From: Escherichia coli
GTDB taxonomy: Bacteria > Pseudomonadota > Gammaproteobacteria > Enterobacterales > Enterobacteriaceae
Length of the DNA stretch: 64,000 nt
Reading direction: 5' to 3' (one strand)
Assembly: GCF_046105845.1 (NCBI RefSeq)
Contig: NZ_CP151004.1
Below, piece after piece: positions 7,450 to 64,000 of this stretch. Within the stretch, counting starts at the first letter, position 1, and each line of letters begins with the position of its first letter. The translations under genes and the position numbers were made by a program. Below the pieces are notes generated by a model. The model had not been told where the DNA came from. It searched no databases and saw nothing but the letters and a program-made list of their open reading frames with translations.

Positions 7450-7616
7450 CGTGATCCCTTAAGCATCTTTTTTATGCTTACTTCGCCGTGGATACTACCA
7501 CGCACAGTGATGTGCGTGCCGGGGTTCACTTGCGAGCTCTTGTCTACGTAGTGGCTCGCGAAGGAACCTTTAAAAACTGTCTTAGTGTCAGGGGCAGTTT
7601 TTAAAGATTTCCTGAA

Positions 7617-23322: not shown

Positions 23323-24987
<1,665 letters not shown>

Positions 24988-24999
24988 CAGGCCAGCACC

Positions 25000-25130
25000 G
25001 ATGCCTGATGCGACGCTTAATGCGTCTTATCAGGCCTGGATTTCCCTGCAATATATTGAATTTGCACTATTTGCCAGGCCGGAGAAGGCGTTCACGCAGT
25101 ATCCGGCATCCGGGCAAGATTGCCTGACGC
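25000..25130. repeat. REP (repetitive extragenic palindrome) cluster between convergent dtpD and phr
   Basis: GCCTGATGCGACGCTTAATGCGTCTTATCAGGCC and a second GCCGGA...TCCGGC unit; typical E. coli REP sequence. Confidence 0.75.
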
Positions 25131-34772: not shown

Positions 34773-35446
34773 CAAACGTTCTGATTGTTGAAGATGAACA
34801 GGCTATTCGTCGCTTTCTGCGCACGGCGCTGGAGGGCGATGGGATGCGCGTCTTTGAGGCCGAAACGCTGCAACGCGGCTTGCTGGAAGCGGCAACCCGT
34901 AAGCCAGATTTGATTATTCTCGATCTCGGCCTGCCCGATGGTGATGGGATTGAGTTTATCCGCGACCTGCGCCAGTGGAGCGCGGTGCCGGTGATTGTGC
35001 TTTCCGCACGTAGCGAAGAGAGCGACAAAATCGCCGCGCTGGATGCCGGAGCGGATGATTACCTGAGTAAGCCATTTGGTATTGGCGAATTGCAGGCCCG
35101 TCTGCGCGTCGCTTTACGCCGCCACTCCGCCACCACCGCGCCCGATCCGCTGGTGAAATTTTCCGATGTTACCGTCGATTTAGCGGCTCGTGTGATCCAT
35201 CGCGGTGAGGAAGAGGTGCATCTCACACCAATTGAGTTTCGCCTGCTGGCGGTGCTGCTCAACAATGCCGGAAAAGTGCTCACCCAGCGCCAGCTCCTTA
35301 ACCAGGTGTGGGGACCAAACGCGGTCGAACACAGTCATTATTTGCGTATTTATATGGGGCATCTGCGACAAAAACTGGAGCAAGATCCCGCCCGCCCCCG
35401 CCACTTCATTACTGAAACCGGTATTGGGTATCGGTTTATGCTTTAG
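34769..35446 (+). CDS. kdpE: Response regulator KdpE (OmpR family)
   Basis: GTG start overlapping the kdpD stop; 225 aa [31 protein letters not shown]...; receiver plus winged-helix domains. Confidence 0.96.
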   Translation: MTNVLIVEDEQAIRRFLRTALEGDGMRVFEAETLQRGLLEAATRKPDLIILDLGLPDGDGIEFIRDLRQWSAVPVIVLSARSEESDKIAALDAGADDYLSKPFGIGELQARLRVALRRHSATTAPDPLVKFSDVTVDLAARVIHRGEEEVHLTPIEFRLLAVLLNNAGKVLTQRQLLNQVWGPNAVEHSHYLRIYMGHLRQKLEQDPARPRHFITETGIGYRFML

Positions 35447-35455
35447 GCGGTTAAA

Positions 35456-35556
35456 TGCTGGATCCGGCATGAACGCCTTATCCGGCCTACAAAATAGCGC
35501 AAATTCAATATATTGCACCATCTTCCCAGGCCTGATAAGCGTAGCGCATCAGGCAG
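35456..35556. repeat. REP elements between convergent kdpE and pgm
   Basis: ATCCGGCATGAACGCCTTATCCGGCCTAC and CCTGATAAGCGTAGCGCATCAGGC units. Confidence 0.7.
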
Positions 35557-35564
35557 TCATAAGT

Positions 35565-42876: not shown

Positions 42877-42908
42877 GCCGGATGCGGCGTAAACGCCTCA
42901 CCCGGCCT
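42877..42908. repeat. REP element downstream of glnS
   Basis: GCCGGATGCGGCGTAAACGCCTCACCCGGCC. Confidence 0.7.
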
Positions 42909-42922
42909 GGTAGAACTTAAAA

Positions 42923-44744: not shown

Positions 44745-44780
44745 ATTGTTGGATGCGACGCTCAAGCGTCGCATCAGGCA
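44745..44780. repeat. REP-like palindrome between nagE and glnS (may act as the nagE terminator)
   Basis: GATGCGACGCTCAAGCGTCGCATC perfect inverted repeat. Confidence 0.65.
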
Positions 44781-44789
44781 TAAAGAAGA

Positions 44790-54169: not shown

Positions 54170-54262
54170 TGCGATGTTGACACGTCTTATCCTTCAAAGT
54201 CGGATGCGACGCTGACGCGTCTTATCCGACCTACAGTTGGCACGCATCCGGCAATGTTGTAA
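54170..54262. repeat. REP / IRU-like palindromic repeats
   Basis: GTCGGATGCGACGCTGACGCGTCTTATCCGACCTAC and adjacent GCACGCATCCGGCAATG. Confidence 0.65.
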
Positions 54263-57162: not shown

Positions 57163-58203
57163 TTGAACATAGACACTCGCGAAATCACCCTGGAGCCAGC
57201 AGACAACGCGCGTCTGTTGAGCCTGTGCGGCCCGTTTGATGACAACATCAAACAACTCGAACGCCGTCTCGGCATCGAAATCAATCGCCGCGATAACCAC
57301 TTTAAACTGACCGGCCGTCCGATTTGCGTCACCGCTGCGGCAGACATTCTGCGTAGCCTGTATGTCGATACTGCCCCGATGCGCGGTCAGATTCAGGATA
57401 TTGAACCGGAACAGATCCACCTTGCGATTAAAGAAGCGCGGGTACTGGAGCAAAGCGCGGAGAGCGTGCCGGAGTACGGCAAAGCGGTCAATATCAAAAC
57501 CAAACGCGGCGTAATCAAGCCGCGCACGCCAAACCAGGCGCAGTACATCGCCAATATTCTCGACCATGACATTACCTTCGGCGTTGGCCCGGCGGGTACG
57601 GGTAAAACCTACCTGGCAGTGGCTGCAGCAGTTGATGCCCTGGAGCGTCAGGAAATTCGCCGTATTCTGCTGACTCGTCCGGCGGTAGAAGCCGGTGAGA
57701 AACTGGGCTTCCTGCCTGGCGATTTAAGCCAGAAAGTAGATCCGTATCTGCGCCCGCTGTACGACGCGCTGTTTGAAATGCTGGGCTTTGAGAAAGTCGA
57801 GAAACTGATTGAGCGCAACGTTATTGAAGTCGCGCCGCTGGCCTATATGCGTGGCCGTACGCTGAACGACGCGTTTATCATTCTCGATGAAAGCCAGAAC
57901 ACCACCATCGAACAGATGAAGATGTTCCTGACCCGTATCGGTTTTAACTCAAAAGCGGTTATCACCGGCGACGTCACGCAGATCGACCTGCCGCGTAATA
58001 CTAAATCAGGCTTACGTCATGCCATCGAAGTGCTGGCTGACGTCGAAGAGATCAGCTTTAACTTCTTCCACAGCGAAGACGTGGTTCGTCACCCGGTGGT
58101 GGCGCGTATCGTTAACGCTTATGAAGCCTGGGAAGAAGCAGAACAAAAACGTAAAGCGGCGCTGGCAGCAGAACGCAAGCGCGAAGAACAGGAACAAAAA
58201 TGA
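57163..58203 (+). CDS. ybeZ: PhoH-like ATPase YbeZ
   Basis: Start assigned to TTG at 57163 (346 aa, ..[18 protein letters not shown]..) with an AGAGGA RBS; an in-frame ATG at 57124 is the alternative. Walker A GPAGTGKT. Confidence 0.9.
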
Positions 58204-58667
58204 GTCAGGTGATCCTCGATTTACAACTGGCATGTGAAGATAATTCCGGGTTACCGGAAGAGAGCCAGTTTCAAACATGGCTGAATGCAGTGATCCCGCA
58301 GTTTCAGGAAGAGTCGGAAGTGACTATTCGCGTGGTCGATACCGCCGAAAGCCACAGTCTGAATCTGACCTATCGCGGTAAGGATAAGCCGACCAACGTG
58401 CTCTCCTTCCCGTTTGAAGTGCCGCCTGGCATGGAAATGTCGCTACTGGGCGATCTGGTTATCTGCCGTCAGGTGGTTGAGAAGGAAGCACAGGAGCAAG
58501 GCAAACCACTGGAGGCGCACTGGGCGCATATGGTGGTGCACGGCAGTCTGCATTTGTTAGGTTACGATCACATCGAAGATGACGAAGCAGAAGAAATGGA
58601 AGCCATCGAAACAGAGATTATGCTTGCTCTGGGCTATGAGGATCCGTACATTGCCGAGAAAGAATAA
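58200..58667 (+). CDS. ybeY: Endoribonuclease YbeY (16S rRNA 3'-end maturation)
   Basis: 155-aa ORF with the H-x-x-x-H-x-x-G-x-x-H metal motif ([11 protein letters not shown]). Confidence 0.96.
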
Positions 58668-58756
58668 TTTGCCAGGCATTTGACTGGCAGACGTCCCCGC
58701 CGTTGGTGATTAACGACGGCGTTTTGATTAACTAACATGAGAACCCATACGACGCC

Positions 58757-59635
58757 ATGAGCGACGACAATTCACACAGTAGTGACACGATAAGCAACAA
58801 GAAGGGATTTTTCTCCCTGTTACTCAGCCAACTTTTCCACGGTGAACCGAAAAACCGTGACGAACTGCTGGCGCTGATCCGTGATTCCGGGCAGAACGAC
58901 CTTATCGACGAAGATACGCGCGATATGCTCGAAGGGGTGATGGACATCGCAGACCAACGCGTCCGCGACATCATGATCCCCCGCTCCCAGATGATTACCC
59001 TGAAACGCAACCAGACGCTGGACGAATGCCTTGATGTCATCATCGAGTCCGCCCACTCACGTTTCCCGGTGATTAGCGAAGACAAAGATCACATTGAAGG
59101 GATTCTGATGGCGAAAGACTTGCTGCCGTTTATGCGCAGCGATGCTGAAGCCTTCAGCATGGACAAAGTGTTACGTCAGGCAGTTGTCGTTCCTGAAAGT
59201 AAGCGCGTAGACCGGATGCTGAAAGAGTTTCGCTCTCAGCGTTACCACATGGCGATCGTCATTGACGAATTCGGTGGGGTTTCCGGTCTGGTGACCATTG
59301 AAGACATCCTGGAACTGATTGTTGGTGAGATTGAAGACGAGTATGACGAAGAAGATGATATCGACTTCCGTCAGCTGAGTCGTCATACCTGGACCGTGCG
59401 CGCACTGGCTTCCATTGAAGACTTCAACGAGGCGTTCGGCACCCACTTTAGCGATGAAGAGGTCGACACTATCGGTGGTCTGGTGATGCAGGCATTTGGG
59501 CATCTTCCGGCGCGTGGTGAAACCATCGACATCGACGGTTACCAGTTCAAAGTGGCGATGGCCGACAGTCGGCGTATTATTCAGGTTCATGTCAAAATTC
59601 CGGATGACTCACCCCAGCCAAAGCTGGATGAATAA
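58757..59635 (+). CDS. corC: Mg2+/Co2+ efflux protein CorC (CBS-pair plus CorC_HlyC domains)
   Basis: 292-aa [48 protein letters not shown]... Confidence 0.95.
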
Positions 59636-59659
59636 AACCGAAACTGGATAGATAACTAC

Positions 59660-61201
59660 ATGGCTTTTGCCTCATTAATTGAACGCCAGCGCATTCGCCT
59701 GCTGCTGGCGTTATTATTCGGTGCCTGCGGAACGCTGGCCTTCTCTCCTTACGATGTCTGGCCTGCGGCGATTATTTCGCTGATGGGGCTTCAGGCGCTG
59801 ACCTTTAACCGCCGTCCACTCCAGTCTGCCGCTATTGGCTTTTGCTGGGGATTTGGCCTCTTTGGCAGCGGTATTAACTGGGTCTATGTCAGCATCGCGA
59901 CTTTTGGCGGAATGCCTGGCCCGGTTAACATCTTCCTGGTGGTGCTGCTGGCGGCGTATTTGTCGCTGTATACCGGACTGTTTGCTGGCGTGCTGTCGCG
60001 CCTGTGGCCGAAAACCACCTGGCTGCGCGTGGCGATTGCCGCCCCTGCTCTCTGGCAAGTGACCGAGTTTCTGCGCGGTTGGGTGCTGACTGGTTTCCCG
60101 TGGTTACAGTTCGGCTATAGCCAGATTGATGGCCCGTTAAAAGGGCTGGCACCAATAATGGGCGTGGAAGCCATTAACTTCCTGCTAATGATGGTTAGCG
60201 GCCTGCTGGCACTGGCGTTGGTCAAACGCAACTGGCGTCCGCTGGCGGTGGCCGTCGTGCTGTTCGCCCTTCCCTTCCCGCTGCGTTACATCCAGTGGTT
60301 TACCCCGCAACCGGAGAAAACCATTCAGGTTTCGATGGTTCAGGGCGATATTCCGCAATCACTGAAATGGGACGGAGACCAGCTTCTTAATACGCTGAAG
60401 ATTTACTACAACGCAACGGCACCGCTGATGGGCAAATCATCGTTGATTATCTGGCCGGAGTCGGCGATAACCGATCTGGAAATTAATCAGCAACCGTTCC
60501 TCAAAGCACTGGACGGTGAGTTGCGCGATAAAGGTAGCTCGCTGGTAACCGGGATTGTTGACGCGCGTCTCAATAAGCAGAACCGCTACGATACTTACAA
60601 CACCATCATCACGCTGGGGAAAGGTGCGCCGTACAGCTACGAATCAGCCGATCGCTATAACAAAAACCATCTGGTGCCGTTTGGCGAGTTTGTCCCGCTG
60701 GAGTCGATTCTGCGTCCGTTAGCGCCGTTCTTTGATCTGCCGATGTCGTCGTTCAGCCGTGGGCCATATATCCAGCCACCGCTGTCGGTAAACGGTATTG
60801 AGCTTACTGCGGCTATTTGCTACGAGATCATTCTCGGCGAGCAAGTGCGTGATAACTTCCGCCCGGATACCGATTATCTGCTGACTATCTCCAACGATGC
60901 ATGGTTTGGTAAGTCTATTGGTCCATGGCAGCACTTCCAGATGGCGCGAATGCGTGCGCTGGAGTTGGCGCGCCCGCTACTGCGTAGCACCAACAACGGC
61001 ATTACGGCGGTGATTGGTCCGCAGGGTGAGATTCAGGCGATGATCCCGCAATTCACCCGCGAGGTGTTAACCACTAACGTGACGCCGACTACCGGACTTA
61101 CACCGTACGCACGTACCGGCAACTGGCCTCTGTGGGTGCTGACGGCACTGTTTGGTTTTGCTGCTGTGCTGATGAGTCTGCGTCAGCGACGTAAACGTTG
61201 A
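59660..61201 (+). CDS. lnt: Apolipoprotein N-acyltransferase
   Basis: 513-aa [50 protein letters not shown]...; C-terminal nitrilase-like domain. Confidence 0.96.
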
Positions 61202-61305
61202 GGTGAATGATGCGCTGGCCTGCAAAATTGCATCATTTTTGCAGGCCAGATAAACCGTTAACACCGCATCCGGTATCAACAAAACATACTTTCTCATTAA
61301 GCGGT

Positions 61306-61332
61306 GGGGCGTGATTATCATGCCCCTTTTTT
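61306..61332 (+). terminator. Rho-independent terminator of lnt, abutting the stop codon of the convergent rhomboid gene
   Basis: GGGGC-gtgattatcat-GCCCC followed by TTTTTT; ends 1 nt before the minus-strand stop at 61334. Confidence 0.65.
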
Positions 61333-61333
61333 C

Positions 61334-63211
61334 TTACGGTTCAGGGATACAAGCCACATTGCCATATTGGGGATGACGAATAATTGCCTGCGGATCAAGC
61401 GAGCGCGTCCTGTCCAGTTGGATTAACCCGTTCTTCGCCATAACAAATATTTTTCTACCATCCGCTGAAAAACGAAGGTGATTAACGTAGCTGGCAGGAT
61501 AAACGCCAATAATCTGCCCGGCATTAATATTGAGCTGGATGACATAACCTTGCAGGCCATATGACACCAACGCTAAATATTGACCGTCCGGGCTAATACC
61601 CTCAACGGAATAAACGCTCCTGCTACACCATTGCGTCATAATACTGGCTTGTTGATCCTCAGCTCTTATACGTGAAATCCCCTGGCTATCGGCAAAAATA
61701 ATCTCTCCATTTTTTGGTCGGAATCCCATCGCAGAAACGACACCACGCGCATCACCTGCGGGAAAGTCTTCTTTCTGATGCGTGATGGTATTGATGCGTA
61801 CAATGTCACCTCTGACCATACCGGGTATCAACAATGTTTTTTCATCCGGGGAAAGTGCCATAACCCAGGCACCAGGTTTATTACTCGTCCCCGTCCCGTC
61901 GTATTTCTCCAGCGGGATATCCGCCACATGCTGATAAGTCACCAGATCAATGGCTGACACACTATTACTGGTGCGATTCATCACCCAAGCTTTTGTGCCA
62001 TCACGCGAGAGGATAAGACTGTCAGGATGTGCACCGGTGGTAATCGACTGAATAATCTCCCCCGTCGCCACGTTAATGACCGATAACGCATTCGCTTCAA
62101 ATGAAGTCGCATAAAGCAACGTTTCATCCGGGCTTAGCGCCAGCGATCTGACGCCCTGATCTTTACAGCCACCACAATGTTTGACTGACTTTTCTTTCGC
62201 TATGGGGGCTGTAAAGGTATGCAGGATTTTCTTTTGTCCGAGGTCGAAAACAACAATGCTGTTGGTGTTTTCAATTGCGGCATACAACGTATTACCATCC
62301 CGACTGATCGCCATATCATGGATATCGGAAATCTCAGCGAGCAAATCACCACTGGCCTGTTCACGACTTACCGGAGCGGATAATGTTTCCCTGAGGGCGT
62401 TGCGTTCCTCCGCTAACTGCTGCTTTTTTTGCCGTCGCTCTTGTTCAATCTCCTGTGGATAAAACTCTTCACGCAGGCTTTGCCTGACTTGTAAAACTGA
62501 CTCACCCATCTGCTGCTGCGCAAGCCAGATAGCCCCGGTCAGAAGAAGACTACCCGCAACAATAATCCCGCCTTCCGTAACAAGCCGGTTTTGCCCATAT
62601 AAACGCGCACTCAGCCCCCCCATCGCGCCACCCGCAATCAGGCCGCCAATGTGGCAAGCGTTATCTATTCCTGTTTGCCGGGCACCGTACAACAGTGTCA
62701 GCGCCACCATACCCAGCAGAGGAAATACTCGCCGCTGGTTTTTATGGTGTGTGCCCGCACCTGAAGCAAGCTGTGTTGCTATCGCAGCGCCAGCTATTCC
62801 CATAATCGCCCCGGATGCCCCAACGCTGATGACTATCTGCTCACTTTCGCGTAACGCATAACAGGCACTGATTAGCCCACCAAAGACGCCGGAGAATAAC
62901 CAGATAATCAGAAGTCGCCATTTCCCCAGTATCCGCTCCGCCACTGCCCCCACCACCAGAAGTGCAAACATATTCATCAGCAAATGGGGAAAACTACTGT
63001 GCAGAAAGACACTGCTCAATAAGCGCCAGGATTCGCCCGACAACGTGAGAGAAGTAACGTTAGCACCGAGATGGATGAGTGCGGATTGATCGACTTCTTC
63101 ATAACTCATCCATTGTGCGAGGTAACAAAATATCCCAACACAGAGCGCAAAAAGGATAAGGGTTATTGCGGGTAATTGAACATTTAACGGCTTAACCGAA
63201 GATGCAGACAT
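61334..63211 (-). CDS. Rhomboid-family intramembrane serine protease fused to a C-terminal seven-bladed YVTN/YncE-like beta-propeller domain (625 aa)
   Basis: N-terminal part: seven hydrophobic segments, L1-loop WR (res 62-63), TM2 H-x4-H-x3-N (HSSFPHLLMN), TM4 GASGA (Ser133) and TM6 ACHIGGLIAG (His187), i.e. a complete rhomboid catalytic signature. C-terminal part (res ~300-625): seven repeats of the form SxDGxxLYV.N..SNsVSVID. RBS AAGGAAGAAA upstream. Family assignment by eye. Confidence 0.85.
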   Translation of the reverse strand: MSASSVKPLNVQLPAITLILFALCVGIFCYLAQWMSYEEVDQSALIHLGANVTSLTLSGESWRLLSSVFLHSSFPHLLMNMFALLVVGAVAERILGKWRLLIIWLFSGVFGGLISACYALRESEQIVISVGASGAIMGIAGAAIATQLASGAGTHHKNQRRVFPLLGMVALTLLYGARQTGIDNACHIGGLIAGGAMGGLSARLYGQNRLVTEGGIIVAGSLLLTGAIWLAQQQMGESVLQVRQSLREEFYPQEIEQERRQKKQQLAEERNALRETLSAPVSREQASGDLLAEISDIHDMAISRDGNTLYAAIENTNSIVVFDLGQKKILHTFTAPIAKEKSVKHCGGCKDQGVRSLALSPDETLLYATSFEANALSVINVATGEIIQSITTGAHPDSLILSRDGTKAWVMNRTSNSVSAIDLVTYQHVADIPLEKYDGTGTSNKPGAWVMALSPDEKTLLIPGMVRGDIVRINTITHQKEDFPAGDARGVVSAMGFRPKNGEIIFADSQGISRIRAEDQQASIMTQWCSRSVYSVEGISPDGQYLALVSYGLQGYVIQLNINAGQIIGVYPASYVNHLRFSADGRKIFVMAKNGLIQLDRTRSLDPQAIIRHPQYGNVACIPEP

Positions 63212-63368
63212 AAGGTGTTTCTTCCTTGAAAAGACAGGTAAAAAGCATTTTTCCCGTGTGCAGTTATCATCCCGGCAAACGTCCCATGCCGAAAAGATAA
63301 CTCTGTCCGAAATATGACTTTTTCAGCCTAAAATTACAATCGTAATTAATTCATCCCTAAGTATTTTT

Positions 63369-63384
63369 TGGCATGTAAGTTGCT
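63369..63384 (+). promoter_or_regulatory. Candidate sigma54 promoter upstream of gltI
   Basis: TGGCATGTAAGTTGCT: the GG and GC dinucleotides are spaced exactly as in the -24/-12 consensus TGGCAC-N5-TTGCW. Confidence 0.5.
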
Positions 63385-63665
63385 TTATTTACTGTGTAAG
63401 CAATGAAATCAGCCGCGACGCAACCGGGTTGCACCACCACAAATCAGCGGTAGCACCAAAAAGGTGCAGTTTAAGAATTTTGCTTCGGAATGGTGCGGCG
63501 CAACTCGCAAAAACAAACAATAAAACAGCAATATCTTTACATTTAGCCAAACTAAATGTTACCTAACAGGCACAACACTGCACAATAAAGTTGCAGACGA
63601 TAACAACACAAACACTCACAACGGGTATCCATGCGTTCTTAACGCAGAAGATAAAGGAGTTGGAT

Positions 63666-64000
63666 ATGCAATTACGTAAACCTGCCACAGCAATCCTGGC
63701 CCTGGCGCTTTCCGCAGGACTGGCACAGGCAGATGACGCCGCCCCGGCAGCGGGCAGTACGCTGGACAAAATCGCCAAAAACGGTGTGATTGTCGTCGGT
63801 CACCGTGAATCTTCAGTACCTTTCTCTTATTACGACAATCAGCAAAAAGTGGTGGGTTACTCGCAGGATTACTCCAACGCCATTGTTGAAGCAGTGAAAA
63901 AGAAACTCAACAAACCAGACTTGCAGGTGAAACTGATTCCGATCACCTCACAAAACCGTATTCCACTGCTGCAAAACGGCACTTTCGATTTTGAATGTGG
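63666..64000 (+). CDS. gltI: Glutamate/aspartate ABC transporter periplasmic binding protein, 3'-truncated by the window edge
   Basis: ATG at 63666 with AGGAG RBS; MQLRKPATAILALALSAGLAQADDAAPAAGSTLDKIAKNGVIVVGHRESSVPFSYYDNQQKVVGYSQDYSNAIVEAVKKKL...; signal peptide present. Confidence 0.92.
   Translation, partial: MQLRKPATAILALALSAGLAQADDAAPAAGSTLDKIAKNGVIVVGHRESSVPFSYYDNQQKVVGYSQDYSNAIVEAVKKKLNKPDLQVKLIPITSQNRIPLLQNGTFDFEC

Follow-up and report, generated by a model that had tools for sequence, protein, structure and literature searches.

What are the two inverted repeats that stand directly behind the lnt stop codon in this Escherichia coli DNA, and do they serve either of the two genes that converge on them? 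The first-pass annotation of the window (the whole stretch of 64,000 nucleotides analysed here) described them as two overlapping, mutually exclusive repeats. It proposed a protein binding site, an RNA processing or stability element for the convergent transcripts, or a palindromic element unrelated to REP sequences. We compared the segment with REP and BIME elements at other loci, with the same site in other genomes and with its own predicted RNA folds.

The locus and its two inverted repeats

The lnt open reading frame (59660-61201, + strand) ends with the TGA codon at 61199-61201. As first annotated, the repeats follow this codon immediately, and the gene beyond them is convergent and encodes a rhomboid family protein. 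The lnt product of the window has 513 aa, one codon more than in K-12 and strain 042 (512 aa each). Its C-terminus differs with the allele (RQRRKR-stop in the window, RARKR-stop in strain 042, RQRRK-stop in K-12), matching the junction. The region is 100% identical to that of E. coli strain AST215, where the gene order is miaB-ybeZ-ybeY-corC-lnt, the convergent 625-aa gene and gltI. A scan of 60900-61700 found no promoter-like site.

The 625-aa protein has an N-terminal rhomboid domain (Pfam PF01694, E = 1.4e-27). Its C-terminal region gave weak WD40, lactonase and beta-propeller matches in Pfam, and in one genome the orthologue is annotated as a 'beta-propeller fold lactonase family protein'. 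Relatives of the protein were found at four loci among species-representative genomes, E. whittamii included, a sample too small for a phylogeny of the site alleles. Two metagenome-assembled genomes ('Proteobacteria bacterium' and 'Collinsella sp.') hold short contigs with the lnt-rhomboid junction in the short 042/R1 allele form described below, and with a rhomboid protein 93% identical to that of the window; these contigs are probably misbinned Escherichia DNA.

The sequence from 61200 to 61260 is GAGGTGAATGATGCGCTGGCCTGCAAAATTGCATCATTTTTGCAGGCCAGATAAACCGTT, and the features recognised in and around it are collected in Table 1. The large inverted repeat is real and longer than was first annotated. 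Its two 13-bp arms pair perfectly and are separated by a centre of 9 bp, in which one T/T mismatch is followed by two further pairs (TG/CA) and a CAT loop. This 13-bp stem is the longest perfect short-range stem of the 64 kb window, and 13 bp was reached in 2 of 5,000 dinucleotide shuffles of the 132-nt intergenic region. The large repeat is far above chance. The only other perfect 12-bp short-loop inverted repeats of the window lie at 7568-7606 (arms CTTTAAAAACTG and CAGTTTTTAAAG) and at 23383-23416 (arms TATTTATGCAAT and ATTGCATAAATA).

The small inverted repeat also exists, but its first arm had been placed one base off (TGATGC occupies 61208-61213, not 61207-61212) and the repeat extends to 8 bp. 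An 8-bp stem appeared in about 7% of the dinucleotide shuffles of the same 132-nt region. The small repeat is chance-level complementarity between the tail of one REP (GATGC) and a linker remnant, the two parts that carry its arms. The repeats had been said to share nucleotides; this holds for position 61237 only, and only in their extended versions, the arms being interleaved rather than overlapping. Formation of both at once would require a pseudoknot with connectors of 1 nt and 0-1 nt across the 13-bp helix, and from this geometry we infer that the two are mutually exclusive in practice.

Table 1. Features between the end of lnt and the convergent gene, in window positions.
Feature	Position	Strand	Details
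Truncated inverted y-type REP (iREP)	61204..61223	+	TGAATGATGCGCT, then GGCCTGC; alignment to a genuine y REP and to the E. whittamii and E14 orthologues
Remnant of the BIME-1 long (L) linker	61224..61240	+	AAAATTGCATCATTTTT
Degenerate z1-type REP	61241..61275	+	GCAGGCCAGATAAACCGTTAACACCGCATCCGGTA; local alignments to REPs at other loci
Large palindrome, 13 bp + 2 bp	61215..61249		CTGGCCTGCAAAA (61215-61227) / TTTTGCAGGCCAG (61237-61249); by alignment, facing REP heads and both L linker ends
Small inverted repeat, 8 bp	61206..61237	+	AATGATGC (61206-61213, y REP tail) / GCATCATT (61230-61237, linker remnant)
Predicted outer helix	61209..61270	+	GAUGCG (61209-61214) / CGCAUC (61265-61270); REP tails enclosing the large hairpin in the minimum-energy and centroid folds
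Intrinsic lnt terminator	61306..61333	+	GGGGCGTGATTATCATGCCCC (61306-61326), 9-bp GC-rich stem, plus T6
042-type sequence standing for this stretch	61202-61281		TGTGCCTGATGTATCCGGCATAAACAAAAC
Convergent rhomboid gene, 625 aa	61334..63211	-	context only, outside the element; annotated rhomboid family protease

Homology of the segment to BIME-1

A BIME-1 (bacterial interspersed mosaic element type 1) is defined by three parts: an inverted y REP, a z1 REP facing it head to head, and between them the long L linker, which has an IHF site; the REPs carry GTAG/CTAC, and a locus has a single copy of such an element (PMC3333891). The GTAG tetranucleotide is required on a REP, 5' of the stem foot, and reads CTAC in an inverted copy (PMC3333891). 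The homology of the segment to these parts was established piece by piece. Local alignments of the z1 part to REPs at rplY-yejK (K-12), fliC-fliA and gudD-barA, all of them places with recognisable REPs or BIMEs, covered positions 61236-61281 and scored 55-64 (13 ± 2 in shuffles); the alignment to the fliC-fliA BIME-1 extends into the linker. The left part alone scored 33 against a genuine y REP (shuffles 9.9 ± 3.3), a value reached by none of 2,000 shuffles. In a gap-tolerant global alignment, the whole 76-nt element scored 87 against the fliC-fliA BIME-1 (shuffles 21 ± 5, maximum 43), with gaps of 10 nt in the y REP and of 4, 12 and 3 nt in the linker.

Copy number was examined by blastn of 61202-61280 against 5,426 complete E. 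coli genomes. Almost every genome had matches to the right half of the query at other intergenic sites that carry no annotation, and the z1-like part, although decayed, gave a median of 3 and a maximum of 11 matching places per genome. No match to a strict 35-nt z-REP consensus was found in the window with up to three mismatches allowed, while the shorter REP tail motif CGCATCCGGCA, with one mismatch allowed, found the local REPs. Other REPs or BIMEs of the window lie near 24990-25100, 35460-35560, 42880-42910, 44750-44785 and 54190-54255. Those at 35460-35560 (+ strand) and 24990-25100 (- strand) are well-preserved BIME-1-like elements, in which a linker with CAAATTCAATATATTGCA is flanked by two REPs; single or partial REPs are found near 54190-54255, 42880-42910 (- strand) and 44750-44785.

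The orthologous site of E. whittamii holds the intact form. There, a complete y iREP, L linker and z1 REP (TGCCTGATGCGCTACGCTTATCAGGCCTAC - AAAGTTTGTGCAATGTATTGAATTTGCGCGATTTT - GTAGGCCGGATAAGGCGCTCACGCCGCATCCGGCA) are flanked by the lnt end and the terminator that also flank the window element. This E. whittamii segment is a member of a high-copy family, since it matches a median of at least 20 places per E. coli genome (at least 40 pieces in 1,048 records). Megablast with the same segment found an intact BIME at the lnt/rhomboid site in no E. coli genome. We propose that an Escherichia ancestor had an intact BIME-1 at this site, as E. whittamii still does.

Compared with that form, the y REP of the window is without 10 stem nucleotides between the two parts given in Table 1, which read ACGCTTATCA in E. 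whittamii. The L linker has lost about 18 nt at its top, among them the IHF-like motif ATTCAAnnnnTTG, and keeps its two ends. The motif is present in E. whittamii, in the E14 allele, in the fliC-fliA BIME and in the BIME at window position 35440, and it is absent from 61195-61290. The head tetranucleotides are altered as well: CTGC (61220-61223) stands for the CTAC of the y iREP and GCAG (61241-61244) for the GTAG of the z1 REP, while E. whittamii and E14 have CTAC and GTAG. The inner stem of the z1 REP is mutated from GGCG/CGCC to ACCG/CACC, and consequently z1 forms no hairpin of its own on the + strand. Neither half of the element forms its own REP stem-loop (a 30-40 nt imperfect palindrome) in the + strand fold.

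These losses (10 nt in the y REP, about 18 nt at the linker top) would have joined the complementary heads and linker ends, in the form ..GGCCTRCAAAA / TTTTGYAGGCC... Read in this way, the 13-bp palindrome is the junction of the facing REP heads with the complementary ends of L: it is what survives of the central BIME stem, made compact by the loss of its top.

The segment 61204-61275 is thus, with high probability, a decayed BIME-1, and we regard it as a near-neutral relic without a dedicated conserved function. It resembles genuine REP copies in sequence, it belongs to a family of high intergenic copy number, and by homology and orthology it is a single-copy pair of an inverted y and a z1 REP in head-to-head arrangement. 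Judged from its sequence, membership is by descent and not by present form: GTAG, the IHF motif and an intact stem in either REP are gone. The proposal that the palindrome is unrelated to REPs is refuted by the homology of the palindrome and its flanks to REP/BIME-1 and by the intact BIME-1 of E. whittamii at the same site. The type of element is already known, and the relic is an ordinary one and no new regulatory device. The value of the result lies mainly in the correct annotation of some 55 bases after lnt as a REP/BIME relic.

Alleles at the site and variation among carriers

Several forms of the site were found in E. coli. The window type is present in 192 (megablast) or 202 (blastn) of the 5,426 complete genomes, about 4%, and the full palindrome occurs once per genome in its carriers. 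The E14/APEC/BL21 type (1,102 genomes) keeps y and L and has lost most of z1. Local alignment of the E14 allele with the window element is poor because each keeps largely different parts of the BIME, and the multiple alignment with E. whittamii resolves their relation. In the 042/R1 type excision is nearly complete and only two tails are left (TGCCTGATG-TATCCGGCA); its count of about 1,900 was obtained by subtraction from the 3,234 genomes with the rhomboid gene, together with a listing of matches taken at even steps. After lnt, the window is longer than the 042 allele by about 55 nucleotides. Both BIME tails are retained in the short 042 allele, which is therefore a deletion and not an empty site.

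K-12-type genomes are without 61196-63420 (2.2 kb) and have 154 other bases there. These 154 bases are unrelated and contain a hairpin and REP-like sequence. The 2.2 kb segment comprises the BIME relic, the terminator, the rhomboid/beta-propeller gene and the upstream region of this gene. Its left breakpoint lies inside the last lnt codons, and in K-12 an IS5 is located slightly beyond the replacement. The rhomboid gene is absent from about 2,190 of the 5,426 genomes. The BIME site adjoins the edge of a 2.2 kb presence/absence polymorphism. E. whittamii keeps the BIME-1 whole at this one site and E. coli has no fewer than three deletion forms of it, which makes a clean natural decay series. 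The quasi-palindromic DNA would invite slippage and template switching, in agreement with the many deletion alleles found here.

Conservation of the palindrome had been suggested as a check, and its absence as a ground for refutation. It is indeed lacking: carriers are few, and even among them differences fall inside both repeats. We compared seven window-type sequences (the window and six other strains). The change 61212 G>A, in strain MS 21-1, breaks the small repeat. In the large repeat, 61225 A>T breaks one pair and 61247 C>T turns a G-C pair into G-U, while 61236 T>A repairs the T/T mismatch and gives ST70 a perfect 16-bp stem; MS 21-1 carries 61236 T>A together with the pair-breaking change at 61225. 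The terminator (61306-61333) is the least variable segment in the seven sequences, and only the length of its T-run varies.

Compared with E14 and E. whittamii, the window differs on both sides of the pair 61222/61242, from A-T to G-C. This is the only unambiguous double-sided change, as MAFFT places 61215-61216 in the y REP tail, before the deletion. Together with the perfect 13-bp stem, the double change could be a sign that pairing was selected and that the element did not simply decay neutrally. Correction of quasi-palindromes by template switching, a known E. coli mutation mechanism (PMC7202029), could equally explain both the change and the perfect stem.

RNA folding, possible effects on lnt and known systems

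Folding the lnt 3'UTR and the antisense strand, the check first suggested for the repeats, gave the large hairpin on both strands, and on both it is dominant. On the + strand this hairpin alone has -23.4 kcal/mol, and the pair probabilities of its 13-bp stem are 0.88-1.0. The small hairpin has -7.8 kcal/mol and an equilibrium probability of about 1e-10, and only until transcription reaches about 61244 does the nascent RNA have it as its best fold. Two competing structures, as originally described, are thus correct in form, but the energies lie heavily on one side. The intact E. whittamii BIME has the same central stem of heads and linker in its predicted fold. From the lnt stop codon to the terminator, the predicted 3'UTR fold has -31.8 kcal/mol in the window, -26.6 kcal/mol in E14 and -6 to -8 kcal/mol in the 042 type. 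By these predictions, the alleles do not conserve the stability of the structure directly behind the lnt stop.

Neither repeat is followed by a U-run, as the first pass had noted. The palindrome does not qualify as an intrinsic terminator: AGAUAAACCG comes next, and the terminator scan does not flag it. The lnt terminator was correctly placed about 60 nt further on (Table 1); it directly adjoins the stop codon of the convergent rhomboid gene, and every allele with this gene has conserved it. An Rfam search of 58000-64000 at a permissive threshold gave three chance-level matches, none of them in the element. On the - strand, that of the rhomboid transcript, 61255-61282 holds a terminator-like hairpin, TTGTTGATACCGGATGCGGTGTTAACGG followed by TTTATCT, which derives from the z1 REP remnant read in antisense. 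The GGGGC hairpin beside the rhomboid stop codon has no U-run in the rhomboid direction, and the end of the rhomboid transcript would vary between alleles.

Since the terminator is downstream, the BIME relic would be transcribed as part of the lnt 3'UTR. The nascent RNA may briefly form the 8-bp hairpin and would then refold to the large one, which makes up essentially the whole predicted equilibrium population. Transcribed REPs are described as a barrier to 3'-to-5' exonucleases in a passage of PMC12306157, and the large hairpin may act in the same way. The same article, citing Liang, Rudd and Deutscher 2015, reports in the relevant passage that REPs reduce translation of the gene upstream when they lie less than 16 nt from its stop codon. 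The foot of the large hairpin (61215) is 13 nt after the lnt stop codon, or 7 nt if the outer helix is counted, and so falls within this reported distance. It could slightly hinder terminating ribosomes.

These distances, and the high stability of the hairpin, are what would be expected if it had been selected as a post-transcriptional regulator that stalls terminating ribosomes or blocks exonucleases and thereby sets the Lnt level in carriers. The double-sided change at 61222/61242, which preserves pairing, agrees with such selection, and so does 61236 T>A, which extends the stem in ST70 and MS 21-1 (16 perfect bp in ST70; the 61225 change is also present in MS 21-1). Other carrier changes (61225 and 61247), however, break pairs, and only about 4% of E. 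coli genomes carry the hairpin at all. Moreover, the commonest allele among the genomes with the rhomboid gene has a predicted hairpin of only -6 to -8 kcal/mol after the stop, and lnt is an essential gene in all these genomes. We consider a selected regulator of lnt unlikely. As lnt is essential and most E. coli are without the hairpin, any effect of the hairpin on lnt is judged incidental.

A related idea is that a hairpin produced by BIME decay was co-opted in the roughly 4% of E. coli lineages that have it, and tunes lnt through ribosome stalling or protection of the mRNA 3' end. In that case the perfect stem would have been kept, or made perfect again by template switching, and a dead repeat would have become a new regulatory hairpin. 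We give this possibility slightly less weight still. An effect on RNA stability, as first proposed, may exist, stabilisation being a recognised trait of REP hairpins that are transcribed. Most E. coli alleles nevertheless have no such hairpin or only a very weak one, so that no conserved role in RNA stability is indicated.

The DNA itself might also be read as a palindromic site for IHF, gyrase or a dimeric regulator of lnt or of the rhomboid gene. A perfect 13-bp dyad with a 9-bp centre is suggestive, and BIME-1 linkers commonly bind IHF (PMC3333891). The IHF-like motif, the one defined protein site of the BIME-1 linker, is nevertheless precisely the part deleted here, and the change of GTAG to GCAG removes the tetranucleotide needed by the REP-associated transposase (PMC3333891). 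The loss of GTAG should make the relic a poor substrate for this enzyme. The dyad stands between convergent gene ends with no promoter-like site in 60900-61700, and a full palindrome that occurs once per genome, in a small minority of genomes, does not speak for a recognition site. A protein binding site, as first proposed, is accordingly unsupported, and we regard it as quite improbable.

An RNA switch, in which the two exclusive hairpins steer how the convergent lnt and rhomboid transcripts are terminated, processed or read through, is a shade less probable again. In its favour, the two repeats cannot coexist and the small hairpin is the best nascent fold until about 61244. With only the large hairpin stable (a gap of 15.6 kcal/mol, and an equilibrium probability of the small one of about 1e-10), we do not find such a switch credible. 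No U-run follows either hairpin, the true terminator is a separate, conserved structure, no terminator or ribosome binding site is adjacent, and the element has no Rfam match. The small repeat is at chance level and broken in MS 21-1, and most alleles are without both repeats.

An independent, MITE-like mobile palindrome unrelated to REPs, inserted after lnt, would account for the greater length of the window relative to the 042 allele, but it has next to no probability, as the extra sequence shows homology to BIME-1 throughout, the short allele keeps both BIME tails, and neither the rest of the window nor other places in E. coli genomes yielded a second copy of the palindrome. ERIC/IRU and MITE origins were also considered and found no support.

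The decayed BIME-1 can be set beside three known systems. It is like the single 3'UTR REPs that stabilise mRNA or stall ribosomes in having a stable hairpin with a stop codon upstream and a terminator downstream, and its foot, 13 nt from the stop, lies within the limit of less than 16 nt given in the cited passage of PMC12306157. Unlike those REPs, its hairpin is the junction of two REP heads and not the imperfect stem of one REP, it is not conserved across alleles, and any effect on lnt is putative. With the E. coli quasi-palindrome hotspots of template switching, as a passage of PMC7202029 presents them, it shares an imperfect inverted repeat, a stem-perfecting change (61236 T>A) and one double-sided change; the pattern is compatible with such a hotspot, while the variants at 61225 and 61247 break pairs. 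From a BIME-1 (also RIP/RIB) it differs by the 10 nt lost from the y REP, the approximately 18 nt lost from the linker with the IHF-like motif, and GCAG/CTGC in place of GTAG/CTAC; no REP folds on itself on the + strand, and a compact 13-bp hairpin of REP heads dominates instead. It nonetheless agrees with BIME-1 in the order and orientation of its parts, in its extragenic position at the 3' end of a gene, in its single copy and in homology along its whole length.
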